34,014 bases of DNA from Deltaproteobacteria bacterium (lineage in GTDB: Bacteria; Desulfobacterota; Dissulfuribacteria; Dissulfuribacterales; UBA3076), in the NCBI GenBank assembly GCA_030606515.1, contig JAUWGF010000002.1, positions 1-34,014 of the forward strand, given 5' to 3'. The notes under the pieces were generated by a model. That model saw nothing but the letters and a program-made list of their open reading frames with translations, had not been told where the DNA came from and did no database searches. Positions 5,730 to 21,117 of the stretch are shown here, piece by piece; the stretch's first letter is position 1, and each line of letters begins with the position of its first letter. Made by a program: the position numbers and the translations under genes.

Positions 5730-5740
5730 GGTAAATCGAA

Positions 5741-6915: not shown

Positions 6916-7158
6916 GAGAGTATCCTATAAATTAATAATAGAAGAAAATGTGATATGTTGCCACAAACTTTAAAACAAGGTATCAAGATATCCCACTGAA
7001 CATCTGATAGAGCAAGAATTACATAATATGTGCCATCCTGGGGCCGCAAGTGTTGCGAGTTTAAGATAAAGAAGATATTTGTAATAGAGAAGGTGCAGCC
7101 CAAAAGATCCACAAAATCATCTAGGAAAAATGGGCCAAATTTATGGGTTTCTGAAATT

Positions 7159-7914: not shown

Positions 7915-8723
7915 CCTCTCACAATGTCTTGAACAAGTCTCAAATCATCAATGCTATCCACATCTATGGCCGCTTCAGGAAAAGGCATTATAACAGCACC
8001 TGCGATGAGCCCCATCTGGCGCGATATCCGGGCCAGACCCTCATCAAGAGACAGCCGCCCCAGCAAATACCGCAATACTGCCATCCAACCGACGGCACTG
8101 ATCATACGCCATGGCTTCTTGCGCTTGCTTTCCACCTTGCGCCAGAAGTCGGCAGCAGTGCGGGCGCGAGGCGTGAGAAAAGCAAACAGATTGCAACTAC
8201 AGTAAGCACCGTCGCGAAGTCTCGTCACGGTCCTTCTTGTTCCCGGATAGGCCGCCGCCAACAGTTCGTACCGGGCCAGACCGATGACAATGTCGCATTC
8301 TGTAGAGCGGGCACGGGAACAAAAATAATCCACCATCTGAGCGTTCAAAAGGGCGTGATCAGCGGTCGTTACTAGAACGGGTCTATCTTTCGGAAGCGAT
8401 TGCAATATGTACAAAGTACTTGAACTGGGGGTTGCCCGATTTTCCACCCATTTCACATGACCCGATGCAATGCGGTCACAAAGCTCTGCATCCTGATTCA
8501 CTGCATACCGTTGCGGGCCGCACATTATACAGGCGTCTATTTCCTTGGCAGCGTTCAAGGCATCGAGCACGCGAAGGACCATGGGCCTACCGTCCACCAA
8601 AGTCAATGCCTTGCAACAGACCCCTGTTGCCTTGGCAACAGGGTCATCAGGCGAGCGATTCGCCGCAAGGACTACGGCTGTGAAACGTGGTGTCTCTGTA
8701 TTGACATCGCTCAAGTTCCTCAT
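7911..8723 (-). CDS. MobA-like nucleotidyltransferase family protein (NTP_transf_3-like)
   Basis: 270 aa. The N-terminal blocks AVVLAANRS....KAL..VDGRPMV and TTADHALL are typical of MobA-like NTP transferases. Its start overlaps the stop of the upstream gene (ATGA at 8720-8723). Its 3' end overlaps the 7159..7914 gene by 4 nt. Confidence 0.5.
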   Translation of the reverse strand: MRNLSDVNTETPRFTAVVLAANRSPDDPVAKATGVCCKALTLVDGRPMVLRVLDALNAAKEIDACIMCGPQRYAVNQDAELCDRIASGHVKWVENRATPSSSTLYILQSLPKDRPVLVTTADHALLNAQMVDYFCSRARSTECDIVIGLARYELLAAAYPGTRRTVTRLRDGAYCSCNLFAFLTPRARTAADFWRKVESKRKKPWRMISAVGWMAVLRYLLGRLSLDEGLARISRQMGLIAGAVIMPFPEAAIDVDSIDDLRLVQDIVRG

Positions 8724-9964
8724 TTCAGTTTCTTTTGATAGATACGGTAACGTTTGTATACCTCGGCCCCCAGCGACTCCAGCATGTTTCGCATTCTCGT
8801 ATTGTCTTCAAGGATCCAGGACAGTTCCACCTCTTGTATACCGCGTTTGACCACGGCAACACGTACTGCGTCGATTATCATAAACGCGAGCACAGCACCC
8901 AACAGGCTATGCTGATAGCGTTTACGTATGCCCATAAGAACGGCCCGCCCTGTCTTGGGATAGGTTATCTTAAGACGCCATAGCAGTTTGAACCAGCCAA
9001 TAGGCAAAAGCCGTCCGTTAAGATCTCGAATGATCTCATTCAAATTTGGGAATGCGACTATCATAGCTGTCGGGATACCGTCCACTTCGGCGATTTGCAC
9101 AAAGTTTTCATCCACCAGGGACGCCAAATTACGGCCTAAATCTCTAAACTCCGACTCGGTAAAAGGGATGAAACACCAGTTTTGTGACCAGGCATCTTCA
9201 AAGATATCGCGTATGATCTGCAGATCTTTCTCCAGGCTGGATTTGCGCAATGGCCGAATGCGCACCCGCCCTGCCATCTTGCCCATGGCTTGTATAACAG
9301 CAGGTATCATAAAATCAGTGCCGAGACGATATGCCAACAGGTCTTTTTCCTTGAAATAGTCCTGTTCCTCTAACCGCTCCGCGTAGTAAGGACAGGCATG
9401 ACCCATCATGACCATGGGAGGTGTATCAAAACCTTCCACCAGAAGGCCACACTCATGGTTGATGGAAAGGTTAAACGGCCCAAGGACTCGGCGCATGCCC
9501 ATCTCGCGCAGCCAGGTCTCAGCGGCGTTCAGAAGGGACCGGAAAATTGCGGCATCGTTTTGCGCATCCAGCATCCCGAAAAAACCAGTAGCATCCTGAT
9601 AACGTTCCAGATGGAGCTCGTCCACCTGGGCACTGATGCGGCCGACGGGCTGCTTGCCCCGGTAGGCAATCCAGAAACGACAACGTGCATGCGCGAAATA
9701 AGGATTTCGGCGGGACAGATGTTGGTGCCGTTCTATCAAAAGGGGTGGTACCCATACCGGGTCGTCTGCATAGATTGACCACGGAACGCGGATGAACCTG
9801 TACAAGGCACGACGACCTGTCACAGGTACGACTCGTAACAACCCATTATTTTGTCTCTGTCTGCCAGGCGGACGTGGGATAAAAGATTTCATAGCGAATG
9901 AAAACACCGGATATATTCGTATCCATTGGGAAATTACAACATAGAGTAACCGTTCACCGTTCAT
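8720..9964 (-). CDS. GNAT-like acyl-CoA N-acyltransferase; candidate bacterial ceramide synthase (bCerS-type)
   Basis: 414-aa ORF, or 390 aa if the ATG at 9892 (MKSFIP...) is used. The blocks RFIRVPWSIYADDPVWVPPL and GFFGMLDA, and the C-terminal RAVLMGIRKRYQHSLLGAVL, fit a large GNAT-superfamily protein. The function is inferred from its divergent adjacency to the spt operon. Confidence 0.45.
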   Translation of the reverse strand: MNGERLLYVVISQWIRIYPVFSFAMKSFIPRPPGRQRQNNGLLRVVPVTGRRALYRFIRVPWSIYADDPVWVPPLLIERHQHLSRRNPYFAHARCRFWIAYRGKQPVGRISAQVDELHLERYQDATGFFGMLDAQNDAAIFRSLLNAAETWLREMGMRRVLGPFNLSINHECGLLVEGFDTPPMVMMGHACPYYAERLEEQDYFKEKDLLAYRLGTDFMIPAVIQAMGKMAGRVRIRPLRKSSLEKDLQIIRDIFEDAWSQNWCFIPFTESEFRDLGRNLASLVDENFVQIAEVDGIPTAMIVAFPNLNEIIRDLNGRLLPIGWFKLLWRLKITYPKTGRAVLMGIRKRYQHSLLGAVLAFMIIDAVRVAVVKRGIQEVELSWILEDNTRMRNMLESLGAEVYKRYRIYQKKLK

Positions 9965-10144: not shown

Positions 10145-12016
10145 ATGCAGGCGACACCGACCGAAAACAATCTGCCGTTGCGGGGCGCAGATTTTTCCAC
10201 GCTGGCGGAGGCACTTGATTACGCTGCCCGGGGTAAGACCGGGTATAACTTTTATACCAGCAAAGGGAAACTTTCTGCCGTGCTTCCTTATGCACAATTG
10301 AGGGAAGAGGCACAGGTACTGGCCCTCCGTCTCCACAGCCTGGGGCTGGAACGTGGTACCCGGATGGCACTGGTGGCAGACACTCACCCTGATTTCCAGC
10401 GCTTCTTTTTTGCCTGCCAATACGCCGGCTTGGTGCCGGTCCCACTTCCCGCAATGATTTCCATGGGTAGCCGCAATAATTATGTGGCGCATTTGCGGAG
10501 GCTGCTCGTAAGTAGCCAGGCAGCGGTTGCCATGGCCCATGAAGGGTTTATCGAGTTTCTTGCCGAGGCCGCTGCAGGATTGGACCTCAGGTTTGTCGGC
10601 GCCCCTAATGCATTTGCTGATCTTCCCCAAAGCACTATCCAGCCGCTTCCCATAGGACCCATGGAGATGGCCTACATTCAATACACATCTGGAAGCACGC
10701 GCTTCCCGCGTGGGGTGATCATCTCCCAAAAAGCGATTCTGAGCAATCTGAGAGGCATTATTAGGACCGGGCTCCGGATGCGGCCCGATGATCGTTGCCT
10801 ATCCTGGCTTCCATATTACCATGATATGGGCTTTGTTGGATTCGTACTGGCCCCGCTGGCATGTCAGCGCTCTGTCGATTACTTGGGCACTCAGGCATTT
10901 GCAATGCGGCCCAGGCAGTGGTTGGCCCTGATGACCCAGAGCAGGGCCACGATCTCTTTCGGTCCACCGTTTGGTTATGAACTCTGCGCACGCCGAGTCA
11001 GGAAAAGCGATATGGACCGGTTTGACCTCAGTGCCTGGCGCGTGGCAGGAGTCGGAGCGGAAATAATCCGTCCCGACTTCCTAAAACAGTTCGCGAAAAT
11101 CTTTGCTCCCTGTGGATTCGACAAAAAGGCCTTTCTAGCTTGCTACGGCATGGCAGAATGCTCTCTCGGTGTGAGTTTTGCGTCTCTCGGCCAGGGTCTG
11201 GATGTGGACATTATAGACACCGACCATTTTGTTGCACACCAGGAGGTATTGGCTGTGGAGGACGGTTCAGAGGAAGAGCGCCCTTTGCGTACGAGCATCT
11301 TCGTTAAGTGCGGCAAACCGCTGCCAGGGTATGAAGTCGTAGTACGGGATCGGCAAGGAAGGGAATTGCCGGACAAGCGCTGCGGGATCATTTTTATTAA
11401 GGGGCCGAGTGTGATGTCCGGTTATATCGGAGATATTGATGCGACCCGGGAGGTCCTGTCCCAGGATGGCTGGCTCAATACCGGTGATATCGGTTATCGA
11501 ATCCAGGGAGATATCGTGATTACTGGACGTGAAAAGGACTTGATCATTATCAACGGCCACAATATCTGGCCTCAGGACCTGGAGTATCTGGTCGAGCAGA
11601 AGCCCGGGGTGAGGCGTGGAGATGCAATGGCCTTTTCCGTCACAGGTGCAGGAGGAAAAGAAATCGTTGTCATGGTCGTTCAGTGCCGTGAATCCGACCC
11701 AGCGAAGAAAAAATCCATGACCAAACAACTGCAGGGTTTGATCCGCCAGGGATCGGGTATTGACTGCTTCGTGGAACTGGTCCCTCCCCATACATTACCT
11801 CGCACTTCTTCCGGGAAGCCGTCTCGATCCAAAGCGCGGCAGGATTTTATCCAACGAATTGGGCAAGGCCACAAAAGTGCACAGAAACGGCCTACGACAA
11901 AACGCCCAGCAGAGTATTCCGCCTTAGATAGATATTACAAGGATAATCCGTTTGCTGATTTATTTTTTCCCGATTATCCCAAACGCATTTCTGAATCAGT
12001 GTTCATCGATAGATAG
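10145..12016 (+). CDS. Fatty acyl-AMP ligase / acyl-ACP synthetase-like adenylating enzyme
   Basis: AMP-binding core motif YIQYTSGSTRFPRGVIIS, plus GYELCA, TGDIGY and the C-terminal PRTSSGKPSR. AGAGG sits 4 nt before the ATG at 10145. The C-terminal ~70 aa form a basic extension. Confidence 0.8.
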   Translation: MQATPTENNLPLRGADFSTLAEALDYAARGKTGYNFYTSKGKLSAVLPYAQLREEAQVLALRLHSLGLERGTRMALVADTHPDFQRFFFACQYAGLVPVPLPAMISMGSRNNYVAHLRRLLVSSQAAVAMAHEGFIEFLAEAAAGLDLRFVGAPNAFADLPQSTIQPLPIGPMEMAYIQYTSGSTRFPRGVIISQKAILSNLRGIIRTGLRMRPDDRCLSWLPYYHDMGFVGFVLAPLACQRSVDYLGTQAFAMRPRQWLALMTQSRATISFGPPFGYELCARRVRKSDMDRFDLSAWRVAGVGAEIIRPDFLKQFAKIFAPCGFDKKAFLACYGMAECSLGVSFASLGQGLDVDIIDTDHFVAHQEVLAVEDGSEEERPLRTSIFVKCGKPLPGYEVVVRDRQGRELPDKRCGIIFIKGPSVMSGYIGDIDATREVLSQDGWLNTGDIGYRIQGDIVITGREKDLIIINGHNIWPQDLEYLVEQKPGVRRGDAMAFSVTGAGGKEIVVMVVQCRESDPAKKKSMTKQLQGLIRQGSGIDCFVELVPPHTLPRTSSGKPSRSKARQDFIQRIGQGHKSAQKRPTTKRPAEYSALDRYYKDNPFADLFFPDYPKRISESVFIDR

Positions 12017-12058
12017 AGGTGGTATCGTGTCCGATCCGGCGTCCACCGGAAGGTCCTT

Positions 12059-13000
12059 ATGTCTCGTGTGATTGCCTTGACGGGAGCAACCGGGTTCATA
12101 GGCGGTGTACTGGCACAGCGGCTTGAGGCCGAAGGCTGGCAAGTCAGGGCCTTAGTGCGTCTTTCCTCGGTTAAGGCCCGGCTTACCGGCATGGTCACGC
12201 AGTGGGTGATAGGGGACCTGGAGGACATGGACAGCCTACGCCGTTTGGTTTGCGGTGCAGAAGCCGTCGTGCACTGTGCAGGCGCAGTTCGTGGCGCATC
12301 CCAGGACTATTTTAATCGGGTCAATAGCGCAGGTGTAGCGAGGCTGGCCCAGGCTGCTACAGAAAACTATCCGCCACCGCGCTTTTTGATGATTTCTTCG
12401 CTGGCGGCCCGTGAACCGGACATCTCTCCGTACGCGGCCAGCAAGCGACAAGGTGAAGCCGCATTGGCGGCTACTGCAAAGGAAATGGACTGGACTGTGT
12501 TCCGGCCGCCTGCTGTGTATGGACCCGGGGACAAAGAACTGCTGCCGCTGTTGCGCTGGATAGGACGGGGTATCGCTTTGGTGCCGGGTGCTGGTCATGC
12601 CCGCCGGTTTTCATTGTTATACATAGAAGACTTGGCAGAGGCGGTGATAAGATGGTTGGAAAGCGACAGTTGTGGACAAGATGTATTCGAACTGCACGAC
12701 GATCGTAGCGGCGGATATACTTGGAGTGATGTGATCAAAACGATCGCACTGCTACGCGCCAGACCTGTCCTTCGCGTGCGGGTGCCTGTGACGGTACTTG
12801 CTACCCTGACCAAGCTGAATCTGATGACGGCCAGGATGGTAGGATATGCGCCGATGCTGACCCCTGGAAAATTACGGGAACTTATGCATCCCGACTGGGT
12901 GTGCGATAATACGCCCTTTAGCAAGGCAACCGGATGGAAACCGCAGATTCCCCTGGAAGAAGGCCTGCTGCGTACATTGGGATGGCACGACGAATCTTGA
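12059..13000 (+). CDS. NAD(P)-dependent epimerase/dehydratase-fold reductase, CerR-like (candidate ceramide/3-keto reductase)
   Basis: Rossmann motif ALTGATGFIGG at the N-terminus and a YAASK catalytic Y-x3-K. It sits between the ligase and ACP genes, as in the Caulobacter ceramide cluster. Confidence 0.65.
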   Translation: MSRVIALTGATGFIGGVLAQRLEAEGWQVRALVRLSSVKARLTGMVTQWVIGDLEDMDSLRRLVCGAEAVVHCAGAVRGASQDYFNRVNSAGVARLAQAATENYPPPRFLMISSLAAREPDISPYAASKRQGEAALAATAKEMDWTVFRPPAVYGPGDKELLPLLRWIGRGIALVPGAGHARRFSLLYIEDLAEAVIRWLESDSCGQDVFELHDDRSGGYTWSDVIKTIALLRARPVLRVRVPVTVLATLTKLNLMTARMVGYAPMLTPGKLRELMHPDWVCDNTPFSKATGWKPQIPLEEGLLRTLGWHDES

Positions 13001-13015
13001 AAGGAGCGCGAACCT

Positions 13016-13264
13016 ATGTCACAGTATGAAGACATCCTTGCACAAATCTATCCGGTTCTGCAGCAGCTCGCCCGTGACAAGCAGGAAATCAATGAAGCGA
13101 CGGATTTGGTAGCCGATCTCGGTCTTGATTCTATGGCGGTAATGGAACTTCTACCCGCTATAGAGGACTGCTTCGATATCTCCATTCCATTAAATATATT
13201 GCCAGATGTCCGTACGGTTAAGGACCTTGCTTCACAGGTCCAACAATTGATGCTGGAATCGTGA
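13016..13264 (+). CDS. Acyl carrier protein
   Basis: 82 aa with the phosphopantetheine attachment motif DLGLDSMAVMEL. AAGGAG lies upstream. The stop overlaps the spt start (TGATG). Confidence 0.85.
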   Translation: MSQYEDILAQIYPVLQQLARDKQEINEATDLVADLGLDSMAVMELLPAIEDCFDISIPLNILPDVRTVKDLASQVQQLMLES

Positions 13265-14505
13265 TGGGCATTTTCGACAAGTTCCATCGTCTCGCTACGG
13301 ATCAGCGGGCCCTGGTAGATAGTGGCGTCAATCCTTTTAACGTCGTCATCGAGCGGCTCATTTCGGCAACCGAGGCGATCGTGAACGGACGTCACACCAT
13401 CTTAGCCGGTACCAACAACTATTTGGGGCTTACTTTTGATCCGCAATGTATCGAAGCGGCAAAAAAGGCCGTTCAAGCTCAAGGGACCGGGACGACTGGA
13501 TCACGGATGGCAAACGGGACATATGCTGGTCATGCTGCGTTGGAACGTGAATTTGCAGACTTTTTCGGTTACCGTTCTGCCATCGTATTTTCTACCGGCT
13601 ACCTTGCCAATCTGGGGATGTTGTCGGTCCTGGCGGGTCGCGGTGATACGATTTTGGTAGATGCACACTGTCATGCGAGTATCTATGACGGATGCCGCAT
13701 GGGCAGTGCGGAAATCATTCGATTCCGACATAACAATGTGATTGATTTAGAGAAACGCCTACGACGGCTTGGCAAAAAGACCGCAAATACACTGATTCTG
13801 GTGGAGGGCATCTATAGTATGTTAGGCGACCGGGCCCCTCTGGCAGATATAGTAACCTTAAAGCAGAAATACGGTGCCTATCTACTGGTGGACGAGGCCC
13901 ATTCACTGGGTGTTCTTGGTGAACACGGGCGCGGGCTTCTCGAGGAAGCCGGTGTGGGAAACAGCATGGACTTTATCATAGGTACCTTTAGCAAAAGTCT
14001 GGGCGCAACCGGCGGCTTTTGTGTCAGCAACCACCCTGAATTGGATCTGATTCGCTATGCCAGCCGCCCGTATATCTTTACCGCGTCGCCTGCTCCACCG
14101 GTCATCGCCTCCACCCGGACTGCACTCAAGATACTTAAGACACACCCTGAATTGCGCCGACGGCTCTGGCGTAACGCCCGCCATTTGTATCAAGGTCTTG
14201 ACGATATGGGCTTCAGCCTGGGCCCGGAGATCAGTCCTATTGTTGCAGTCCGCTTGCCGAGTGTAAAACAGGCCCTCGTCCTCTGGGGCAATCTTTTGGA
14301 TCGCGGGGTGTATGTGAATCTGGCATTACCCCCGGCCACACCGGACAGCGCGTCCCTGGTTCGCTGTAGCGTGAGCGCAGCGCATACTCAGGAACAAATA
14401 GACTACATCTGCAAGGTCTTTTCCGATCTGAGAGAAGGTGCCATAACCCTGGATGCGCAGTCAACCGCGGTCGATAGCCCTTTGGATGTTACACCCGCAT
14501 CCTGA
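13264..14505 (+). CDS. spt: Serine palmitoyltransferase (alpha-oxoamine synthase family)
   Basis: The PLP-lysine block is GTFSKSLGATGGF. The long blocks HASIYDGC..AEIIRFRHN..DLEKRL, VEGIYSMLGD, LVDEAHS, RPYIFTAS and YVNLALPPATP closely match my recollection of Sphingomonas SPT, and fit it better than BioF or Kbl. GTG at 13261 is an alternative start. Confidence 0.85.
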   Translation: MGIFDKFHRLATDQRALVDSGVNPFNVVIERLISATEAIVNGRHTILAGTNNYLGLTFDPQCIEAAKKAVQAQGTGTTGSRMANGTYAGHAALEREFADFFGYRSAIVFSTGYLANLGMLSVLAGRGDTILVDAHCHASIYDGCRMGSAEIIRFRHNNVIDLEKRLRRLGKKTANTLILVEGIYSMLGDRAPLADIVTLKQKYGAYLLVDEAHSLGVLGEHGRGLLEEAGVGNSMDFIIGTFSKSLGATGGFCVSNHPELDLIRYASRPYIFTASPAPPVIASTRTALKILKTHPELRRRLWRNARHLYQGLDDMGFSLGPEISPIVAVRLPSVKQALVLWGNLLDRGVYVNLALPPATPDSASLVRCSVSAAHTQEQIDYICKVFSDLREGAITLDAQSTAVDSPLDVTPAS

Positions 14506-14582
14506 ATGTGAGACAGGCGGGTATTGCACGAAGAAGGGCTTATCCTGATTTTTGGAATCTTGGCAATGGCCGGACGCATAAC

Positions 14583-15647
14583 ATGAAGAAGAGAGAAGCG
14601 AGGCCCTTTTGCGAGGTCCATTTCGGCGGTCCTGATATGCCGGCATACTGCTTGCGTGACCTCCTAGCGGAACGTATCGCTGCGGTGCCGCCCGGCGGAA
14701 CCATTGATTGGGTAACATACTACTTTCGTGACCGGATGCTGGCCGAGGAATTAATCCGTGCCCACCGGCAAGGCATCAAGGTTACTGTGACACTGGAGCG
14801 TCATCCTCGAACAGCGTATGCCAATGAGAATGTAATTGGAATGTTGTCTGGCCCGAATGGCTTAGGCGAAGGGTTTCGTACCGTGTCCCTGCAGCGGGTG
14901 CCAACCTCTCCCGGGATAGTTTGGAAACCGCATTTGCATGAAAAGCTCTATTGCTTTTCCCACCCGAGGCCGATTGCCTTTATCGGTTCCTTTAACCCGT
15001 CCGGAAATGGTCCAGGGGATGATCCAGCTATCATAGCTGAAATCGGTGACCAGGATCACGGTCACAATGTCCTGGTTGGGCTTGATGACCCCAGGCTGGT
15101 TGAAAGGCTGGTTGAACATGCCCGGTGGATCCACCAGACGAAACGTATCATGTTCTATCGTTTTTCCCCGACTGCAAACAAAGCGGTGAAAGGGAAGGAC
15201 ACCGATATTTTTTTTTGGCCGCGGATACGGCCGCATCCTGTAATACGGTTTCTCTCACGGCTTGGAGCGGGCGCGCGGATACGAATTGCTGCGTCACACA
15301 TCAAAGGGGCGCCAATCGTCAAGGCCTTGATACGACTTGTCCACAGTGGCGCAATAGTAAAGATATTGGCTGAACCAACACTGAGACGGGTCCCTGTGGG
15401 GGTAGAGCGGATGCTGATTCAAGCCGGAATCCCGTTCCGGCGCGTTATTCATCCTAAGGGTCTTCCGATGCATAACAAGTTCGTGCTTGCGGAGAAGGAT
15501 GGCCGGCGCTGGGTTATTTTCGGCAGCTTTAACTGGACAACTCGATCTTATTGGCTCAATCATGAGATTGGCGCTATTTCCACCAATGATCAACTCTTTG
15601 ATGCGTTTGCCAAGCGCTGGGAGGCCTTGGCAGTTCGCAGGGATTAA
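14583..15647 (+). CDS. Phospholipase D superfamily protein with two HKD motifs
   Basis: HKD-1 is HLHEKLYCF...IGSFNPS. HKD-2 is PMHNKFVLAEKDGRRWVIFGSFNWT. No TM helix is evident. The start is ambiguous (GTG 14508, ATG 14583 or ATG 14637). Confidence 0.75.
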   Translation: MKKREARPFCEVHFGGPDMPAYCLRDLLAERIAAVPPGGTIDWVTYYFRDRMLAEELIRAHRQGIKVTVTLERHPRTAYANENVIGMLSGPNGLGEGFRTVSLQRVPTSPGIVWKPHLHEKLYCFSHPRPIAFIGSFNPSGNGPGDDPAIIAEIGDQDHGHNVLVGLDDPRLVERLVEHARWIHQTKRIMFYRFSPTANKAVKGKDTDIFFWPRIRPHPVIRFLSRLGAGARIRIAASHIKGAPIVKALIRLVHSGAIVKILAEPTLRRVPVGVERMLIQAGIPFRRVIHPKGLPMHNKFVLAEKDGRRWVIFGSFNWTTRSYWLNHEIGAISTNDQLFDAFAKRWEALAVRRD

Positions 15648-15658
15648 AAGCAGCTGTT

Positions 15659-17029
15659 ATGACTATTTCACCTTCAACCCTTATTATTCCGGTAGAGACG
15701 CAAGTCCGGGAGATGGATGCCAAACTTCTCTTGGGTTGTATTGCGGTTGAGAGCGGTTTTCCTGTCATTATAGGCTCACGGGCGTTTCTCCATTTCCGGG
15801 TAGACTCGATTCCGAGGGGCGTTTATCTTGCCAAGAGCATTCGTTCGTTAAGCATTCGTATGTTCGACATCCTGCGCAAGCTTGGTCATGAAATCGTTGC
15901 GTGCGATGAGGAAGGCCTGCTGCGTGAACCAGACCCTGAATATTACCGGTGGCGACTGTCACCTATCACTATGCGGCAAGTCTCCCACCTGATTGCGTGG
16001 GGCCCGGATGACGCGAGCACCTTTCGCAAGTATCCCGGCTATCATGGAGCGGAAATCCATATTACCGGGAATCCCCGCGTCGACTTGATACGGCCGGAAC
16101 TTCGTGAGTTTTACCGGTCAGACGCAGATGCAATTCGTGAACGGTTCGGAGACTTCGTGCTGGTCAACACAAACTTTAGCAAGGTAAACCATTTTTATCC
16201 GGAGCTCAGCGAACTTAAAAAGGCAATGGCAAAAGATGGCACCGATGCGGCGAATCGATTTGATATCGGTAAAGGTCGGCATAAACTTGCCCTTTTTAAT
16301 TACTTTCAGGAGATGCTTCCATCACTTTGTGAGTCGCTGGGTAACTCTAATGTGGTCGTCCGGCCTCACCCGGCTGAGAACCAAGGTCCATGGCATGCCA
16401 TAGCTGCACGGTGTGACAATCTGCATGTGGCAAACGATGGGAGCGTAATTCCGTGGCTGATGGCAGCACAGGCATTAATTGCGAATGGCTGTACGACCCA
16501 AGTGGAGGCTGCAGTGCTCGGCACGCCGACTGTGAACTACCAGCCAGTGAAATCAGAGATGTTCGACTTTGAATTGCCTGGTTTGGTAAGCCGGTGTGTC
16601 TTTTCACTCGATGAACTCTGCACGACGGTTCGTGCCATCGTGAAAGGAAATCTCGGGCTGCTTGATTATGCTGAGCGTCGAAAGATATTGGATCGGCACA
16701 TCGCGGGGCTTGACGGCCCTTTGGCAGCGGAACGGATTATCCAGGTCCTGGAGGCCGGAGGCTACAACAAGAGACAACCCCCGGCTACATCATTGAACGT
16801 CTATGTCCATGGCTGGATCCAAAACCACTTGCGGACAATGTCGAAACGTATCAATATGCATCGACCCGGGCATCGAAATAATCTAGCCTACCATGCCTAT
16901 CGCTTTCCAGATATTTCTGTGTCGGAAATCATGAGAAAGATAGCATGCATGGGAAGATTGCTTAATCGCTTTGAGACCATCAAGGTTACACAGGTATCTA
17001 AGCATATATTCAGGATCAGCATCAATTAA
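15659..17029 (+). CDS. Surface-carbohydrate biosynthesis protein, predicted GT-B-like transferase (paralogue 1)
   Basis: 456 aa, roughly 40% identical by eye to 24175..25569. Shared blocks include LIIP.E.QVRE.D.KLLL, ITGNPR.D, ..N.NFS.VN, RPHP.EN, NGCTT..EA, LDGPLA..RII and GHRNN. The fold assignment is a guess from the alternating pattern. Confidence 0.45.
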   Translation: MTISPSTLIIPVETQVREMDAKLLLGCIAVESGFPVIIGSRAFLHFRVDSIPRGVYLAKSIRSLSIRMFDILRKLGHEIVACDEEGLLREPDPEYYRWRLSPITMRQVSHLIAWGPDDASTFRKYPGYHGAEIHITGNPRVDLIRPELREFYRSDADAIRERFGDFVLVNTNFSKVNHFYPELSELKKAMAKDGTDAANRFDIGKGRHKLALFNYFQEMLPSLCESLGNSNVVVRPHPAENQGPWHAIAARCDNLHVANDGSVIPWLMAAQALIANGCTTQVEAAVLGTPTVNYQPVKSEMFDFELPGLVSRCVFSLDELCTTVRAIVKGNLGLLDYAERRKILDRHIAGLDGPLAAERIIQVLEAGGYNKRQPPATSLNVYVHGWIQNHLRTMSKRINMHRPGHRNNLAYHAYRFPDISVSEIMRKIACMGRLLNRFETIKVTQVSKHIFRISIN

Positions 17030-17042
17030 AGGAGATATTCTC

Positions 17043-18146
17043 GTGTACAGCGTAAAAATCTACGGCGCCGGTTCTATCGGCAACCATTTGGCACATGTCT
17101 GCCGTACCAAGGGGTGGGATGTTCTTATATGCGACATTGACCATGATGCACTGAAACGAACACGCGAGGACATATATCCGTCCCGCTATGGACGCTGGGA
17201 CCCGGACATACTCCTTTCAGAGGCAGATACTGGCTCAGGTGAAGGTTTTGACATGGTCATAATAGGCACCCCTCCGGACACCCACATTAGTGTGGCAACC
17301 AGGGTGTTGGAAAACAACCCACCGAAAGTATTGCTTATTGAGAAGCCTTTGTGTACGCCCTCTCTCGATGGGGTCCAGAGGATTGTCGACCTTAAAAAGG
17401 CCACCGGGACATTCGTTGCGGTCGGTTATAACCATAGCCTGACCGAGAATTCCAGGCGCGCGGCCCGGATTCTTGCAAAAAACACGATTGGCGATCCGAT
17501 CACTATCAGCGCCTGTTTCAGGGAACATTGGGGCGGTATTTTCACCGCCCATCCATGGCTGAGCGGCCCCAAGGACACCTACCTCGGTTTTTCTGAACGT
17601 GGAGGCGGAGCTGGCGGAGAACATTCTCACGCCATAAACATCTGGCAGCGGTTTGCCCATCTTGTTAACGCTGGAAGGATCGTTGAGGTATCCTCCACAA
17701 TGGATGTGGTAGTAGATGGTATTGTTAAATATGACCGGATTTGTCTGCTGAATGTCAAGACCCAGGCTGGTCTCGTGGGAGACATCGTCCAGGATGTGGT
17801 TACTGAGCCCCCGCAAAAAAAGGTGAGAATTCAAGGCTCCAACGGCTTTCTGGAATGGTTTGTCAATCTTGATGGCGGACATGATGCCGTGCGTTACTGG
17901 GATGGAAAAGGAGAGATCATAGAAGAAACAATTCAAAAAACGCGTCCCGACGACTTCAAAGGAGAGATAGACTTTATTGAAGTTATCCTGAACGGAGGGG
18001 ATCCAGCGGACGCTCCCATATCGCTTGAGAGGGGGCTTGAGACCATGCTGGTTATAGCTGCTGCTTATGTCTCCCATCGACACAAGAGAACCGTGAGGAT
18101 CAACTATGACGGGGGATACGGACCCGAGGCCTTTGAGATATCCTAA
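17043..18146 (+). CDS. Gfo/Idh/MocA-family NAD(P)-dependent oxidoreductase
   Basis: GTG at 17043 is preceded by AAAGGAG. N-terminal dinucleotide motif KIYGAGSIGNH. MVIIGTPPDTHISVATRVLENNPPKVLLIEKPL is the family's hallmark block. Confidence 0.7.
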   Translation: MYSVKIYGAGSIGNHLAHVCRTKGWDVLICDIDHDALKRTREDIYPSRYGRWDPDILLSEADTGSGEGFDMVIIGTPPDTHISVATRVLENNPPKVLLIEKPLCTPSLDGVQRIVDLKKATGTFVAVGYNHSLTENSRRAARILAKNTIGDPITISACFREHWGGIFTAHPWLSGPKDTYLGFSERGGGAGGEHSHAINIWQRFAHLVNAGRIVEVSSTMDVVVDGIVKYDRICLLNVKTQAGLVGDIVQDVVTEPPQKKVRIQGSNGFLEWFVNLDGGHDAVRYWDGKGEIIEETIQKTRPDDFKGEIDFIEVILNGGDPADAPISLERGLETMLVIAAAYVSHRHKRTVRINYDGGYGPEAFEIS

Positions 18147-18177
18147 TAAGTGCCCGTCCGGAAACAAGGTAAATTTT

Positions 18178-19701
18178 ATGCACAACTTTAATTTTAACGA
18201 TCTGTTTATTCTCGATCTTGCCAACAACCACCAGGGCGACATGAAGCATGCCCTCAACATCATTAATGCAATGGGTAATGTAACCAGAAAGGCCGGTGTC
18301 CGTGCCGCTTTCAAGTTTCAATTCAGGCAATTGGATACCTTTATTCATCCGGATTACAAACAGAGAAAGGATGTAAAACATATCCCGAGATTCATGGAAA
18401 CGGCCTTGACCGCACAGCAATACGAGACACTTACTAAAGCCGTCATTAAGAATGGGATGCATACGATATGCACCCCGTTTGACGAAGAATCCGTGGACGT
18501 TATCCTTGATTTGGGCATTGAAATTATCAAAGTGGCCAGTTGTTCCGCAAGTGACAGGCCTCTTATTGAACGGATTACCCAGGTGAACAAACCCGTCATT
18601 GTCTCAACTGCAGGGTTAAGCATGGACAAGATAGACAGGCTGGTGAGTTTTCTCGAATCAAGAAACATGCACTTTGCCTTGATGCACTGTGTGGCCATCT
18701 ATCCTACGCCGAACGACAAGCTGAGATTGAATCAGATCAACGTGCTGAAAGAGCGGTTCCCGGACGTGCCCATTGGGTTCTCCACCCATGAGGACCCTGA
18801 CAACTACGCGGCCATTCAAATTGCTTATGGAAAGGGCGCAAGGCTGTTCGAAAGGCACGTAGGAATGGAGACAGAAGAACATAAGTTAAACAGATATTCC
18901 TCCAGACCTGAGCAAATCGCCCGATGGATTGAGGCACACAAACAGGCCGTAGCGGCCTGTGGCGGAAAGCATCGCAGCCCTGCCTCTCCTGAAGAGATTG
19001 CCTCTTTACGCTCACTCATGCGTGGGGTATTCGCAAGGGAGGAGATCAAGAAAGGTGATAAGCTTAAGAGGGACAGGGTCTATTTTGCAATGCCGCTCAG
19101 TGACGGCCAGCTTACAAGTGGCGACTGGTTTGATGGGGTTGAGGCTGACAAGGATTATTCTCCGCACGAGCCTGTAAATATGGCTGTTGCCAACACTGTA
19201 TTGCCCCCGGAAGAGATAATTTACCGCATCATGCTTCAGGTGAAAGGGATGCTCCACAAGGCGAGGATACATATCGGAAAGGACAGCTCCATTGAGTTGT
19301 CCCACCACTATGGTCTTGAACGGTTCAGGGAATTCGGTGCGGTCATCATGAACTGTATCAACCGCAAGTATTGCAAAAAACTAATCATCCAGCTTCCCAG
19401 ACAGAAACATCCCTACCATTTTCATAAAAAAAAGGAAGAAACATTCCAGTTGTTATACGGGGATTTGGAGGTAGAACTGGACGGAAAAAGGATCAAACCG
19501 CAGATAGGGGATACTATTCTGGTAAGACCTGGTGAATGGCATAAATTCCATACCCTTGATGGTGCAATTTTTGAGGAAGTGAGTACCACCCACTTTGATA
19601 ATGACTCTTTCTATGAGGATGATAGGATAGCAAGACTCCCCAGGGAGGCGAGGAAAACAGTCATCTCCAAATGGAATGTAATTGAAAAGCAGGCATCCTA
19701 A
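18178..19701 (+). CDS. NeuB-family ulosonic acid (sialic-acid-like) synthase with SAF region and a C-terminal cupin domain
   Basis: Blocks align to E. coli NeuB: LANNHQGD, KFQFR, CTPFDEESVD, KVASCS, IVSTAGLSMDKI, MHCVAIYPTP, IGFSTHE, FERHVG. A SAF-like region follows (EIKKGDKLKRDRVYFAMP). The C-terminal cupin is HPYHFHKKKEETFQLLYG...GDTILVRPGEWHKFH...EDDRIAR. Confidence 0.8.
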   Translation: MHNFNFNDLFILDLANNHQGDMKHALNIINAMGNVTRKAGVRAAFKFQFRQLDTFIHPDYKQRKDVKHIPRFMETALTAQQYETLTKAVIKNGMHTICTPFDEESVDVILDLGIEIIKVASCSASDRPLIERITQVNKPVIVSTAGLSMDKIDRLVSFLESRNMHFALMHCVAIYPTPNDKLRLNQINVLKERFPDVPIGFSTHEDPDNYAAIQIAYGKGARLFERHVGMETEEHKLNRYSSRPEQIARWIEAHKQAVAACGGKHRSPASPEEIASLRSLMRGVFAREEIKKGDKLKRDRVYFAMPLSDGQLTSGDWFDGVEADKDYSPHEPVNMAVANTVLPPEEIIYRIMLQVKGMLHKARIHIGKDSSIELSHHYGLERFREFGAVIMNCINRKYCKKLIIQLPRQKHPYHFHKKKEETFQLLYGDLEVELDGKRIKPQIGDTILVRPGEWHKFHTLDGAIFEEVSTTHFDNDSFYEDDRIARLPREARKTVISKWNVIEKQAS

Positions 19702-19737
19702 TGTGAGTTTTTAGCTACGTTTCATAACGAGGGTTAT

Positions 19738-20370
19738 GTGGGAATACAAGTAATTGTCTTTGACTTTGACGGAACGCTTATTGACTCAAACCAGTTAAAA
19801 TACGATGCGTATTTTAAACTGTTCCCAGACAATGACCGCCATGCCTCAATCATTCGTGTGGTCCTTTCTGAAATATTTGAACAAAGCCGTTACGTCATCC
19901 TGAAAGAGATTCTCCTGAGACTTGGTTACAGGAGGGATGCGCTTTTAAGGGAAAAAGTCAAAGAGCTGGCCGGGTTTTACAACGCAGTTGTTGTGGCAGG
20001 GGCAAAAACCTGCCCGGAGAAGGCAGGAGCGGAAGAGGCGCTCAGAAAATTTTCGTCGGCATATGGACTATACGTGAGTTCCACCACCCCTGATGCCAAT
20101 CTGAAAGAGATTGTTCGATTCAGAAAATGGGATGGCTATTTTCGTGCCGTGTTTGGATGGCCGAATGAAAAGCATGAGACACTCCGGCGTATCATTGCAT
20201 TAGAAGGGTTGAAAAACGCTCAGGTGCTTGTCGTGGGAGATGGAGAATCCGATAGAGAATCAGCGATGAAAAACGGATGCCCTTTTCTCTTTGTTAACGA
20301 ACGGTTTCGATTCGAGGACCTCGGGAATGCCATGGATGGTCTGTGTATATCAAATTGGACAAAAGGATAA
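19738..20370 (+). CDS. HAD-superfamily phosphatase
   Basis: GTG start. Motif I is VIVFDFDGTLIDS and motif IV-like is VVGDGESD. A cap-domain-sized insert lies between them. Confidence 0.75.
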   Translation: MGIQVIVFDFDGTLIDSNQLKYDAYFKLFPDNDRHASIIRVVLSEIFEQSRYVILKEILLRLGYRRDALLREKVKELAGFYNAVVVAGAKTCPEKAGAEEALRKFSSAYGLYVSSTTPDANLKEIVRFRKWDGYFRAVFGWPNEKHETLRRIIALEGLKNAQVLVVGDGESDRESAMKNGCPFLFVNERFRFEDLGNAMDGLCISNWTKG

Positions 20371-20373
20371 TCA

Positions 20374-21117
20374 GTGCTTGAAAACAAGACCATACTGGTG
20401 GTAGTACCCGCACGCGGTGGGAGCAAGGGCATGAAACTGAAAAACATCCGCAAACTGAACGGTGTTCCCCTCGTTGTCCTTGTCGGACGTGTGGTAAAAC
20501 AGATTCCATACGTGGACAGGGCGGTCGTTTCGACGGATCATGAAAAAATAGCTCAAATAGCAAAGGAAAGCGGCCTGGACGTGCCCTTTATGCGGCCAAA
20601 GGCTTTGTCCGGGGATTTTGTGGGTGACTGGGAGGTGCTCAATCATGCCTTGCTGGAATGCGAACAAATCGATGGAAGACAGTATGATGTCATAGTAATG
20701 CTGCAGCCGACTTCTCCCTTGCGTCAACCAGACCATGTGACGGCATCCATAGAGAAACTCATCAAAGGGGGTTTTGATGCCGTATGGACCGTCAGCGAGA
20801 CAGACGCCAAGGCGCATCCCCTGAAACAGCTTGTAATTCGAAAGGACAACCTGGATTATTATGACCCAGCCGGGGCGAACATAATTGCCAGACAGCAGCT
20901 TACGCCGGTGTACCACAAAAACGGCGTGGCATACGCCATTACCCGGGATTGTATCATCAATAAAAAAAGCATCAAAGGTGATAAGACATCATTTATTTTA
21001 ATCAATGAAATCATGGCAAACATTGATACTGAGTTTGATTTAAGACTGGCTGAATTTATCATTAAGCTGGGTGGCAATTCGAGCCAGCAACCATCCAAGG
21101 CTTCAGGGCACATTTGA
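20374..21117 (+). CDS. Acylneuraminate (CMP-ulosonic acid) cytidylyltransferase, NeuA/KdsB family
   Basis: GTG start 3 nt after the HAD stop. N-terminus ILVVVPARGGSKGMKLKNIRKLNGVPLV, followed by MLQPTSPLR. Both are signatures of the family. Confidence 0.85.
   Translation: MLENKTILVVVPARGGSKGMKLKNIRKLNGVPLVVLVGRVVKQIPYVDRAVVSTDHEKIAQIAKESGLDVPFMRPKALSGDFVGDWEVLNHALLECEQIDGRQYDVIVMLQPTSPLRQPDHVTASIEKLIKGGFDAVWTVSETDAKAHPLKQLVIRKDNLDYYDPAGANIIARQQLTPVYHKNGVAYAITRDCIINKKSIKGDKTSFILINEIMANIDTEFDLRLAEFIIKLGGNSSQQPSKASGHI

Follow-up and report, generated by a model that had tools for sequence, protein, structure and literature searches.

A CMP-ulosonate gene cassette behind the ceramide genes of a Desulfobacterota bacterium and its possible role in an acidic outer-membrane sphingolipid

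Organization of the locus

The window, i.e. the whole stretch of 34,014 nucleotides analysed, belongs to the genome of a SEEP-SRB2-like, sulfate-reducer-type member of the Desulfobacterota. Positions 10145-21117 contain ten co-directional plus-strand genes, whose open reading frames were all confirmed, encoding in this order a fatty acyl-AMP ligase (FAAL), a CerR-like SDR reductase, an acyl carrier protein (ACP), serine palmitoyltransferase (Spt), an HKD/PLD enzyme, a TIGR04396 protein, a Gfo/Idh/MocA oxidoreductase, a NeuB-cupin protein, a HAD phosphatase and a CMP-transferase (Table 1). Open reading frames and family profile matches bear out the string, order and families proposed in an earlier note. 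The junctions, measured from the best-supported starts (ATG 10145 for FAAL, ATG 13264 for Spt, ATG 14583 for PLD, GTG 17043 for Gfo and ATG 18178 for NeuB), reproduce exactly the values given there, being 42, 15, -1, 77, 11, 13, 31, 36 and 3 nt, where 77 nt is the Spt-PLD gap and -1 the 1-nt overlap between the ACP stop codon and the Spt start codon. Homologue lengths of about 351-355 aa favour the PLD start, and an alignment favours that of NeuB.

A hairpin scan revealed no terminator-like hairpins in any of the nine junctions, in agreement with the same note. Its statement that the only good promoter precedes the first gene was not sustained: the TTGACA-17-TATCAA site does not stand out from the chance matches that the rest of the region contains, a consensus scan gave 9/12 matches of equal quality within the string, and the total of 17 promoter-like sites is at chance level (16.2 +/- 4.4 expected). 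GC content falls across the string from 0.53-0.57 to 0.46-0.48, as would be expected if the module had been acquired recently, in which case it need not act on the pathway encoded next to it.

Table 1. Features of the window, with coordinates, strand and supporting evidence.
Feature	Coordinates	Strand	Evidence or remark
323-aa conserved protein, CDP-alcohol phosphatidyltransferase-domain protein (CpgA/CC_1159-like) and metallophosphoesterase (CC_1158-like)	1411..4679		Pfam matches
LptG and LptF permeases	4665..6915	-	TIGR04408 338 bits, TIGR04407 317 bits
Two MobA-like nucleotidyltransferases (CC_1152/CC_1153-like)	7030..8723		NTP_transf_3
GNAT-domain protein, 414 aa, candidate bCerS (CC_1154-like)	8720..9964	-	weak Acetyltransf_1 match; divergent from string
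Sigma70-like site TTGACA-17-TATCAA	10034..10062	+	inspection; in 180-nt divergent intergenic region
Fatty acyl-AMP ligase / acyl-ACP synthetase (FAAL, aasR-like)	10145..12016	+	NF006624, 784 bits (cutoff 600)
NAD-dependent epimerase/SDR-family reductase, cerR-like (3-ketosphinganine / oxo-ceramide reductase)	12059..13000	+	PF01370 3e-27
Dedicated acyl carrier protein, acpR-like	13016..13264	+	PP-binding 5e-12
Serine palmitoyltransferase (Spt)	13264..14505	+	NF047599 equivalog, 640.6 bits (cutoff 500)
Two-HKD PLD-superfamily phosphodiester transferase, 355 aa	14583..15647	+	PLDc_2 x2
TIGR04396 protein a, candidate CMP-ulosonate transferase, GT-B fold	15659..17029	+	TIGR04396 360 bits (cutoff 125)
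Gfo/Idh/MocA sugar oxidoreductase	17043..18146	+	PF01408 and PF22725
NeuB-family PEP-aldose condensing synthase with C-terminal cupin (sugar-isomerase-like)	18178..19701	+	PF03102 141.7 bits; Cupin_2
HAD-IA phosphatase, candidate ulosonate-phosphate phosphatase	19738..20370	+	HAD_2 2.6e-14
CMP-ulosonate synthetase (cytidylyltransferase)	20374..21117	+	CTP_transf_3 82.7 bits
TIGR04396 protein b, 44% identical to a	24175..25569	+	TIGR04396 387 bits
WaaP/Kdo-kinase-family kinases	25716-26555; 31363-32931	-; +	possible core-oligosaccharide extension
GT9 heptosyltransferase II-like protein	26884-27969		157.8 bits (cutoff 134.6); possible core-oligosaccharide extension
Second GT9-domain protein	27987-29474		possible core-oligosaccharide extension
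B12-radical SAM protein	29541-31058		within possible core-oligosaccharide extension region (25716..32931)

Ceramide genes and upstream context

The order FAAL-SDR-ACP-Spt is identical to that of aasR-cerR-acpR-spt in Caulobacter (CC_1165-CC_1162; PMC11324152). When the neighbourhoods of 44 Spt loci were compared, the SDR gene stood between those for FAAL and ACP in all of them. The GNAT gene, which here takes the position of cerS in the Caulobacter locus (PMC11324152), adjoins FAAL or nucleotidyltransferase genes in most Spt loci, with 50-63% identity. By annotation and synteny, the FAAL, ACP, Spt, SDR and divergent GNAT genes make up a five-gene ceramide set. The first four had previously been taken as the ceramide backbone set; families and order match Caulobacter, but the set was incomplete, as the candidate N-acyltransferase gene is the divergent one.

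Further upstream, LptF/LptG genes are syntenic with Spt in 16/44 loci, and the MobA-like nucleotidyltransferase genes lie beside GNAT and FAAL genes in most of the loci. The 323-aa protein, CDP-alcohol transferase and metallophosphoesterase accompany Spt in L019, L021, L024, L025, L029, L035 and L064/65. On annotation and synteny, LptF/LptG, the two nucleotidyltransferases, the CDP-alcohol transferase and the phosphoesterase are the counterparts of the Caulobacter genes that serve head-group synthesis and export of anionic sphingolipids.

CMP-ulosonate cassette and HKD enzyme

The NeuB, HAD and cytidylyltransferase genes, already read as a CMP-ulosonate trio, were confirmed by profile matches. 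The NeuB-cupin protein matches PDB 3g8r (6e-92) and, in the alignment, its catalytic residues are kept, since His215, Glu234 and His236 of N. meningitidis NeuB correspond to H204, E225 and H227; the cupin domain matches the D-lyxose/mannose isomerase 7nzo (5e-5). The Gfo gene is found directly 5' of NeuB-cupin in every related locus, and the HAD gene comes after NeuB-cupin in most. The nearest matches of the cytidylyltransferase are CMP-sialate synthetases (1e-24 to CMP-Neu5Ac synthetases in PDB); with the PseF profile it scores 126 bits, under the cutoff of 205.7. Because the string lacks genes for an aminotransferase, an acetyltransferase and a NeuC-type epimerase, the product is predicted to be a non-aminated, Kdn-like acid.

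The HKD/PLD protein carries HxK and GSxN motifs in each half, and no signal peptide was found in it. The nearest folds to its AF2 model (pLDDT 89.6) are PPK1 C-terminal domains, F13, PLD3/4 and PssA. Homologues occur also away from spt (L104, L106).

TIGR04396 proteins as candidate transferases

The TIGR04396 profile bears the name 'surface carbohydrate biosynthesis protein'. Protein a, which scores 52 bits with NF046086 (BFO_1060 family), under its cutoff, gave an AF2 model of GT-B fold (pLDDT 92.4), and its D/E-D/E-G (83-86) and RPHPxE (235-240) motifs are kept across 42 sequences; its former description as GT-like is thereby upheld. D/E-D/E-G and HP motifs have been described for CMP-sialate-using enzymes, and the Pse/Leg transferases of Tannerella, to which TIGR04396 proteins are distantly similar, are genetically proven (PMC5420450); both bacterial sialyltransferase motifs are present here. 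In addition, the presence of TIGR04396 genes goes together with that of NeuB and CTP_transf_3 genes in all contexts examined, and they adjoin the CMP-transferase gene in L047, L051, L054, L061, L063, L064/65, L098 and L099; protein b is encoded directly after the cytidylyltransferase in most relatives.

Motifs and co-variation both argue against the TIGR04396 proteins being TagB/TagF-like phosphotransferases, which would build, together with the HKD enzyme, phosphodiester-linked ceramide head groups from CMP/CDP-activated donors, i.e. a polyol-phosphate or sugar-phosphate, phospho-linked rather than ketosidic. We regard this as improbable, although the Tannerella relatives were at first assigned a TagB-like domain (PMC5420450) and the locus already encodes a CDP-alcohol transferase and nucleotidyltransferases suited to phosphodiester chemistry. 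Among the Foldseek neighbours of the protein a model are the teichoic acid polymerase TagF, a TagF-like polymerase of capsule and also epimerases, but TagF is matched at TM-scores of only about 0.5.

The epimerase matches raise a further, very remote alternative, namely that the TIGR04396 proteins act, like NeuC, as 2-epimerases or hydrolases of nucleotide sugars with a GT-B fold, feeding an aldose to the NeuB domain, which would leave the string without any transferase. The best 30 Foldseek matches are indeed UDP-GlcNAc and related 2-epimerases (E ~1e-9 to 1e-10), but their TM-scores of only 0.43-0.52, at 11-15% identity, correspond to the general GT-B level, and Pfam gives no Epimerase_2 match for these proteins. 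Two to four paralogues per locus (window; L104), a separate genuine Epimerase_2 gene in L104 and the conserved sialyltransferase motifs also speak against it.

Linkage of spt and NeuB genes across genomes

A search for spt within 10 kb of a NeuB gene, suggested by the earlier note, was positive within Desulfobacterota: the linkage recurs in several lineages and in many loci, with no fewer than five independent arrangements of the genes. The order Spt>PLD>T4396a>Gfo>NeuB-cupin is shared by the window, L050, L060, L070 and L092; Spt>ABC exporter>PLD>Gfo>NeuB-cupin by L045, L047, L067 and L105; Spt>ABC>Gfo>NeuB-cupin>HAD>CMP-transferase>T4396 is found in L098. The cassette is convergent with spt in L051 and L061, and divergent from it in L065. 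A non-orthologous cassette, composed of a MsbA/HepA-type ABC exporter, KdsC-family phosphatase, NeuB+SAF, SDR, ALDH, CTP_transf_3, transketolase and TIGR04396, takes the corresponding place 3' of spt in one further lineage, namely in L008, L010, L011, L013, L014 and probably L006. For two closely related cassettes (L053, L059), no spt was found in the available 3-6 kb upstream.

The Gfo-NeuB-cupin-HAD-CMP-transferase-TIGR04396 unit also occurs without spt, in other taxa: within sulfated or carbamoylated polysaccharide-type loci (L097, from Ca. Moduliflexus, and L100-L103), alone (L099), or next to A-PCP, sulfotransferase or PMT genes (L075, L077). Since the unit also sits in spt-less polysaccharide-type loci, the TIGR04396 enzymes are not ceramide-specific; since, moreover, heptosyltransferase and WaaP-like genes lie downstream here, the acceptor may be either ceramide or an LPS-like core.

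It is accordingly possible, though we hold it for the less likely case, that the ulosonic acid goes to an LPS-like core or other surface polysaccharide, with a lipid A-core or an undecaprenyl-linked glycan as the acceptor for the TIGR04396 enzymes, and that the window is an outer-membrane glycolipid island clustered by co-regulation or co-inheritance. The spt-less loci are consistent with this, as are the two GT9 genes and three Kdo/WaaP-family kinase genes 3' of protein b, neighbours typical of LPS inner core; the L103 cassette is also paired with GT9, and the proven Tannerella relatives use a glycan acceptor (PMC5420450). However, heptosyltransferase and WaaP-like genes are not conserved beside the cassette in the other Spt-linked loci, and GT9 and WaaP-like genes do not accompany it in L045, L047, L051, L061, L065, L067, L098 and L105, while Spt stays with the cassette through several rearrangements and one non-orthologous cassette replacement, and in the window only 77 nt, free of terminator-like sites, separate spt from the start of the cassette.

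Proposed pathway and comparison with known systems

Since the cassette lies directly behind the ceramide genes, in an arrangement recurring in related lineages, the probable product is an unusual acidic sphingolipid of the outer membrane, as the gene linkage suggests. We give about even chances to the window being an outer-membrane sphingolipid locus with a portable CMP-3-deoxy-2-ulosonate cassette inserted directly behind spt, and put at one in two the production of an ulosonic-acid sphingolipid, as predicted from the genes. The latter reading had been advanced before: ceramide genes, cassette, recurrent linkage and GT-B/sialyltransferase motifs give it partial support, while ceramide as the acceptor is weakened by the spt-less loci and by the GT9/WaaP-like genes that follow here.

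In the proposed pathway, an aldose phosphate may come from the cupin domain, perhaps together with the Gfo/Idh/MocA enzyme, e.g. by ketose/aldose isomerisation, and the NeuB domain would join it with PEP; the HAD enzyme would take off the phosphate, and the cytidylyltransferase would make the CMP-sugar of the Kdn-like acid. The two TIGR04396 GT-B enzymes would place this sugar on the head group of the sphingolipid. The HKD enzyme might first make or remodel a phosphodiester on ceramide phosphate, creating the acceptor by a PssA-like reaction with a lipid activated by CDP or phosphate, a step that may be likened to KpsS adding Kdo to phosphatidylglycerol.

An aminoglycosphingolipid of Chlorobium limicola reportedly contains neuraminic acid. 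This lipid was described in 1991, as cited in PMC11762602, and the earlier claim that no bacterial system of this kind had been described was too strong. The window locus itself matches the anionic-sphingolipid locus CC_1152-CC_1165 of Caulobacter (PMC11324152), where LptF2/G2 are needed for sphingolipid export (bioRxiv 10.64898/2026.04.12.717747), and an ulosonic-acid sphingolipid, if made, would be a variation on known bacterial sphingolipid head-group pathways.

Gene organization of the string

The string was mapped as ten successive plus-strand ORFs (positions 10088-21117), and the Pfam and NCBIfam assignments agree with the gene order and families that an earlier note, made from the sequence alone, had given for it. 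The start codons reported in the table were chosen on the basis of homologue lengths and alignments. With these starts the junctions measure 42, 15, -1, 77, 11, 13, 31, 36 and 3 nt, 77 nt being the largest, values identical to those proposed earlier. A scan returned zero terminator-like hairpins across all nine junctions, in accordance with the claim that these are free of terminators. The companion claim, that the only good promoter precedes the first gene, had to be abandoned: matches of equal quality to the element reported in the table were found inside the string, for a total at the level of shuffled sequences. Because the counts sit at this level, the promoter and terminator scan carries little weight. 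An Rfam scan of the window gave zero RNA matches, and therefore no riboswitch or leader explanation is available. The GC content of the genes decreases along the string, from 0.53-0.57 (FAAL, SDR, Spt, PLD) to 0.46-0.48 (NeuB-cupin, HAD, cytidylyltransferase), which is consistent with a recruited module of different origin.

Features of the window, with position, strand and supporting matches. T4396a and T4396b are the two TIGR04396 paralogues.
Feature	Position	Strand	Support
Sphingolipid block upstream of the string	1411-9964
bCerS candidate (GNAT), divergent from the FAAL gene	8720-9964		weak GNAT match (9e-5), no NCBIfam match; synteny conserved
Promoter-like element TTGACA-17-TATCAA	10034-10062		within the divergent intergenic region
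Fatty acyl-AMP ligase (FAAL)	ATG 10145	+	NF006624, 784 bits
NAD-dependent epimerase/SDR, CerR candidate		+	family match (generic model, not CerR-specific); position conserved among Spt loci
Acyl carrier protein (ACP)	13016-13264	+	PP-binding match; adjoins spt
Serine palmitoyltransferase (Spt)	ATG 13264	+	NF047599 equivalog, 640.6 bits (curated cutoff 500)
Two-domain PLD-like protein (HKD/PLD)	ATG 14583	+
T4396a	15659-17029	+	TIGR04396, 360 bits (curated cutoff 125)
Gfo/Idh/MocA oxidoreductase	GTG 17043	+
NeuB-family synthase with C-terminal cupin	ATG 18178	+
HAD-IA hydrolase, then CTP_transf_3 cytidylyltransferase	string ends 21117	+
Three-gene insert	21316-23791
T4396b	24175-25569		TIGR04396, 387 bits (curated cutoff 125)
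Putative LPS-inner-core-like toolkit	24175-32931
VapBC-like toxin-antitoxin pair	33054-33748

The sphingolipid block and the Caulobacter locus

The 10 kb upstream of the string contain the divergent GNAT gene, two genes for MobA-like nucleotidyltransferases, LptF and LptG and genes for a metallophosphoesterase, a CDP-alcohol phosphatidyltransferase-domain protein, a conserved 323-aa protein and a Kdo/WaaP-family kinase. LptF (TIGR04407, 317 bits) and LptG (TIGR04408, 338 bits) both exceed their equivalog cutoffs, while the head-group genes are assigned by domain only (PF01066 for the CDP-alcohol transferase, PF12804 for each of the two nucleotidyltransferases, PF00149 for the phosphoesterase).

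In Caulobacter crescentus, the CC_1152-CC_1168 region comprises aasR-cerR-acpR-spt, cerS, LptF2/LptG2 and the genes responsible for an anionic head group, ceramide (di)phosphoglycerate (PMC11324152); sphingolipid export has recently been shown to depend on LptF2/LptG2 (bioRxiv 10.64898/2026.04.12.717747). The FAAL-SDR-ACP-Spt order equals that of CC_1165-CC_1162 (PMC11324152) and, with its cerS-candidate GNAT, two nucleotidyltransferases, CDP-alcohol transferase, phosphoesterase and LptF/LptG, the window locus matches CC_1152-CC_1168 domain by domain and partly in order. Judged from domains and synteny, the ceramide, Lpt and head-group genes would thus belong to a Caulobacter-type system. The differences are that HKD/PLD, TIGR04396, Gfo, NeuB-cupin, HAD and CMP-transferase are absent from the described products of CC_1152-CC_1168 (PMC11324152), that the host is a member of the Desulfobacterota and not an alphaproteobacterium, and that a CpgB-type LCB5/DAG-kinase ceramide kinase was not found among the 30 major predicted genes of the window, outside which it may lie.

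A retrieval centred on Spt over species-representative genomes yielded 44 loci, of which the nearest (94-100% identity) come from Desulfobacterota MAGs labelled SEEP-SRB2, Desulfobacterales and 'Thermodesulfobacteriaceae'. The surroundings of Spt keep the sphingolipid block in many Desulfobacterota, in Nitrospirota and in some proteobacterial MAGs, with LptF and/or LptG in 16 of the 44 loci. Since this Caulobacter-like block is conserved in so many MAGs, the ceramide backbone set is taken as real; the first four genes, to which the earlier note had limited it, are however only part of it, as the bCerS-like fifth member lies outside the interval then considered.

The distribution of the block (loci L002-L044) is wider than the alpha- and gammaproteobacteria stressed in the preprint (bioRxiv 10.64898/2026.04.12.717747). 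Four Nitrospirales/Nitrospiraceae loci (L004, L005, L007, L031) carry in addition, 1-3 kb downstream, a convergent second alpha-oxoamine-synthase, 33-36% identical to Spt.

Enzymes of the CMP-ulosonate cassette

The synthase contains a NeuB domain (PF03102, 141.7 bits against a threshold of 22.1); its residues 8-321 match PDB entry 3g8r, an uncharacterised SpsE-like protein, at 6e-92, and Neisseria meningitidis NeuB at 2e-27. H204, E225 and H227 align with His215, Glu234 and His236 of the meningococcal enzyme (1xuu), and the metal/catalytic residues are therefore kept. The C-terminal portion, about 140 residues long, gives weak matches to cupins of D-lyxose/D-mannose isomerase and mannose-6-phosphate isomerase. 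No paper pairing NeuB with a cupin emerged from the literature search, where this architecture is undescribed. The protein falls below the equivalog cutoffs for N-acetylneuraminate (TIGR03569, 143.5 vs 399.65) and pseudaminate (TIGR03586, 122.4 vs 340.25) synthases, and therefore its substrate is probably different from theirs. As the string contains a phosphatase and no gene for an aminotransferase, N-acetyltransferase, dehydratase or NeuC, the product may be a Kdn-like 3-deoxy-ulosonic acid that has no amino group and derives from a sugar phosphate; the cupin and/or the Gfo enzyme could ready the aldose used by the NeuB domain. The cytidylyltransferase (PF02348, 82.7 bits) is closer to CMP-Neu5Ac synthetases (PDB 6ifd, 1e-24) than to KdsB (4e-5), and its 126 bits are below the PseF equivalog cutoff of 205.7.

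The cassette resembles the Kdn and sialic-acid 9-phosphate pathways in combining a NeuB domain with kept residues, a phosphatase and a CTP_transf_3 protein nearest to CMP-Neu5Ac synthetases; the cassette of a second lineage, described below, has a HAD of the KdsC/KDN-9-P-phosphatase type. It departs from these pathways in that the NeuB, PseI and PseF equivalog cutoffs are missed, in the extra C-terminal cupin of a synthase always paired with Gfo/Idh/MocA, and in the HAD protein, which in the window is of type IA and not KdsC-like.

The HKD protein is soluble and bilobed and has two HKD motifs (HEKLYCFS...GSFNPS and HNKFVLAE...GSFNWT), in which the Asp position of HxK(x)4D (fourth after the Lys) is occupied by Ser in the first copy and by Glu in the second, while H119, K121, H297 and K299 are invariant across 36 sequences. 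The fold of its AF2 model (pLDDT 89.6) is similar to those of PPK1 C-terminal domains, vaccinia F13, PLD3/4 and phosphatidylserine synthase, a result that establishes no more than the superfamily and points to no substrate.

Candidate transferases

T4396a and T4396b are 44% identical. Neither contains a Pfam domain, a PDB sequence search with T4396a was empty, and a literature search on TIGR04396 found no described system. Against NF046086, the model of the BFO_1060 family, they score 52 and 57 bits (cutoff 200), in alignments spanning nearly the whole model. The AlphaFold model of T4396a (pLDDT 92.4) shows a two-Rossmann GT-B fold, whose neighbours, at TM ~0.5, are UDP-GlcNAc 2-epimerases, TagF and a TagF-like capsule polymerase; this is a generic GT-B similarity which, alone, cannot separate transferase, epimerase and TagF-like roles. 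Two motifs, D83-E84-E85-G86 (D/E-D/E-G) and R235-P-H237-P-x-E240 (HP), are conserved across 42 sequences.

BFO_1060-family enzymes of Tannerella forsythia, for which transfer of pseudaminic or legionaminic acid derivatives was shown genetically, have been described as GT-B/TagB-like and as carrying D/E-D/E-G and HP, motifs of bacterial sialyltransferases (PMC5420450). The window proteins are like Tanf_01245/TFUB4_00887 in being soluble, GT-B/TagB-like, about 450 aa long, provided with both motifs and encoded beside NulO biosynthesis genes (PMC5420450), but with just 52-57 bits they are not BFO_1060 members; the Tannerella enzymes act on a ManNAcA residue of a protein O-glycan. By virtue of their fold, motifs, likeness to NF046086 and strict co-occurrence with NeuB and cytidylyltransferase genes, the TIGR04396 proteins are the best candidates for CMP-ulosonate transferases. 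Given the TagF-like fold neighbours, they might act as TagB/F-like phosphotransferases, which we consider very unlikely. A function as NeuC-like epimerases, also represented among these neighbours, appears extremely unlikely, as the sialyltransferase motifs are conserved, several paralogues occur per locus and, in locus L104, a genuine Epimerase_2 protein is encoded beside TIGR04396.

In the window, T4396b is parted from the cytidylyltransferase by an insert encoding a 238-aa protein with no family match, a DUF4833 protein with an N-terminal hydrophobic segment and a MipA-family outer-membrane protein. This insert is missing in L051, L054, L063 and others, where T4396b comes directly next.

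Linkage of the cassette to spt

The linkage was judged from three surveys, centred on Spt, on PLD and on NeuB-cupin. In the first, only the closest relatives (L003, L043) had the PLD-to-cytidylyltransferase string behind spt. In a second lineage, whose Spt is ~65% identical (L008, L010, L011, L013, L014 and probably L006) and to which the Olavius symbiont 'Delta 1' belongs, the equivalent position (~11200-21100) is occupied by a different cassette, made up of an MsbA/HepA-family ABC exporter, a KdsC-family phosphatase, NeuB+SAF, an SDR, an aldehyde dehydrogenase, CTP_transf_3, a transketolase and a TIGR04396 protein 55% identical to T4396b. The sugar cassette has here been exchanged for a non-orthologous one, and the transferase family has been kept. 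The dehydrogenases of this cassette hint at an oxidised, perhaps ulosaric-type, sugar.

The PLD-centred survey revealed, in L045/46, L047/48 and L105, an order running from Spt to an ABC exporter and, after other genes, to PLD, (T4396a), Gfo and NeuB-cupin. In L104, PLD lies among four TIGR04396 paralogues, two cytidylyltransferases, NeuB+SAF and a true UDP-GlcNAc-2-epimerase; no Spt was seen on this contig, which ends 7.6 kb upstream. Upstream Aminotran_1_2 fragments of L104 are not Spt according to tblastn, and the locus was counted as not linked. In L106, PLD is found without cassette neighbours, and comparison ruled out that the adjacent 454-aa protein is a TIGR04396 homologue.

Some of these loci show further peculiarities. 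Two sulfotransferases of L104 share a co-directional run (6239-17240) with the four TIGR04396 genes, HKD/PLD, the two cytidylyltransferases, NeuB+SAF and the epimerase, which suggests an oligo-ulosonate or mixed head group. In L045/L046 (13851-17486), an APH-like kinase-fold protein replaces HAD and cytidylyltransferase after NeuB-cupin, and a 669-aa gene product of the sulfatase/LtaS/phosphoglycerol-transferase family is encoded nearby. A HicAB pair is located within the equivalent cassette region of L047/L048; in the window, a 93-aa ORF overlaps by 4 nt the start of a PIN-domain protein, the two forming the VapBC-like pair reported in the table.

NeuB-cupin is 82-86% identical between lineages whose Spt proteins are only ~65% identical. 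Among informative loci with NeuB-cupin identity of at least 80%, Spt is present in L050, L051, L060, L061, L067 and L070/L092, and not seen in L053 and L059 over the 3-6 kb of upstream sequence that these offer. At 65-75% identity it is present in L065, L098 and L105, and missing from L097 (Ca. Moduliflexus flocculans), L099, L100, L101, L102 and L103; L064, in the same range, has a block of CDP-alcohol transferase, phosphoesterase and LptGF. Below 60%, Spt is found in none of five loci (L075, L076, L077, L083, L085). In two of the latter (L075, 2516-5248; L077, 2885-5710; NeuB-cupin 56-57%), the cassette has as neighbours, in place of spt, genes for a 910-941-aa adenylation-PCP protein whose C-terminal third has no assignment, an amidohydrolase, a P450, sulfotransferases and a PMT-type glycosyltransferase.

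The Spt-linked loci display at least five arrangements: besides the collinear one and the one with the ABC exporter in between, the genes converge in L051 and L061 and diverge in L065, and L098 has its PLD gene displaced. The association of spt with NeuB, for which the earlier note had suggested a neighbourhood survey, thus recurs in several lineages. A linkage outlasting both rearrangement and cassette replacement would be hard to explain otherwise, and therefore argues for a functional connection. The unlinked loci, on the other hand, indicate that Gfo-NeuB-cupin-(HAD)-cytidylyltransferase-TIGR04396 is a self-contained, portable unit; there it lies within glycan loci in which GT2/GT4, sulfotransferases, PAPS genes and carbamoyltransferases abound, or stands alone (L099).

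Proposed pathway and acceptor of the sugar

The earlier proposal of an ulosonic-acid sphingolipid is partly supported by the family-level gene identities, by the retained catalytic motifs and by a recurrent linkage that resists rearrangement and cassette replacement; the identity of the sugar, the order of the steps, the role of HKD and, above all, ceramide as the acceptor are what we infer. In the mechanism proposed, to which we assign about even chances, the five-gene set would make ceramide, which Caulobacter-like head-group enzymes would phosphorylate or activate. The HKD enzyme would form or exchange a phosphodiester on the activated ceramide, the two TIGR04396 enzymes would attach one or two ulosonic acid residues from the CMP-sugar of the cassette, and LptFG would move the resulting acidic glycosphingolipid to the outer leaflet; sister lineages may also use the MsbA-like exporter encoded directly after spt.

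Behind T4396b come genes for a WaaP-like kinase (minus strand), a heptosyltransferase II-like GT9 (157.8 bits vs 134.6), a 495-aa protein whose C-terminal part contains a GT9 segment, a B12-binding radical SAM enzyme and a kinase-domain protein of 522 aa, together a predicted LPS-inner-core-like toolkit adjoining the sphingolipid locus. These neighbours of T4396b, the similar pairing of the cassette with GT9 in L103 and the use of the cassette in polysaccharide-type loci elsewhere would all fit transfer of the ulosonic acid to an LPS-like core or other glycan, the main alternative. We hold it to be rather unlikely; against it speaks that, across the other Spt-linked lineages, it is Spt and not the LPS-type genes that stays with the cassette. 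It is improbable that the toolkit builds a mimic of the LPS inner core on ceramide, in which a Kdn-like acid would be placed on (phospho)ceramide by HKD and TIGR04396, heptose added by GT9 and phosphate by the WaaP-like kinases, before export by LptFG; if true, such a ceramide-anchored molecule would be the counterpart of the Kdo-heptose-phosphate lipid A-core and would be widespread in uncultured Desulfobacterota.

Even with LPS as the target, the data show that the Caulobacter-type sphingolipid and LptFG locus reaches Desulfobacterota and Nitrospirota, and that the site behind spt is a hot spot for head-group cassettes. The locus type itself is already known; the new part is the recurrent head-group module, which makes the finding a good, directly testable lead, not a demonstrated pathway. 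Should the acidic glycosphingolipid be confirmed, an ulosonic head group on ceramide would be a convergent answer to the task of Kdo, that of an acidic, cation-bridging first sugar. It would also provide an extra biomarker lipid for the uncultured sulfate reducers that live in methane seeps and sediments, and a testable function for TIGR04396 and for the NeuB-cupin fusion, two uncharacterised protein types that metagenomes contain very often.

Comparison with known lipids

Bacterial sphingolipids are outer-membrane lipids, partly able to substitute for LPS, and their described head groups are hexoses, uronic acids, phospho-alcohols or phosphoglycerate. A survey of Black Sea sphingolipids reported ceramides and glycosyl-, lysine-, 1-deoxy- and sulfono-ceramides, whose producers include Desulfobacterota (PMC11334938). 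In the literature search, neither a bacterial sphingolipid bearing Kdo or a nonulosonic acid as its head group nor a study of a cluster of this kind turned up. The earlier statement that no such bacterial system has been described is nevertheless too strong, as one chemical precedent may exist. An aminoglycosphingolipid of Chlorobium limicola reportedly contains neuraminic acid. If this composition is right, the lipid combines a bacterial ceramide with a nine-carbon ulosonic acid and would be the sole chemical precedent; it differs in coming from another phylum than the window host. This aminoglycosphingolipid, the subject of work by Jensen, Knudsen and Olson in 1991 (Arch Microbiol 156:248), is cited in PMC11762602. 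The locus, if correctly interpreted, would supply genes for a lipid class with at most one old chemical report.

In Sphingomonas, LPS is replaced by glycosphingolipids in which GlcA or GalA is linked to ceramide, the sugars being UDP-activated uronic acids, and KpsS/KpsC transfer Kdo to phosphatidylglycerol. Both differ from the system proposed here, the former in using UDP-uronic acids instead of a CMP-ulosonic acid, the latter in that the acceptor of KpsS is a glycerolipid instead of ceramide. The likeness is that in each case an acidic sugar placed on a simple membrane lipid gives an outer-leaflet, LPS-like molecule.
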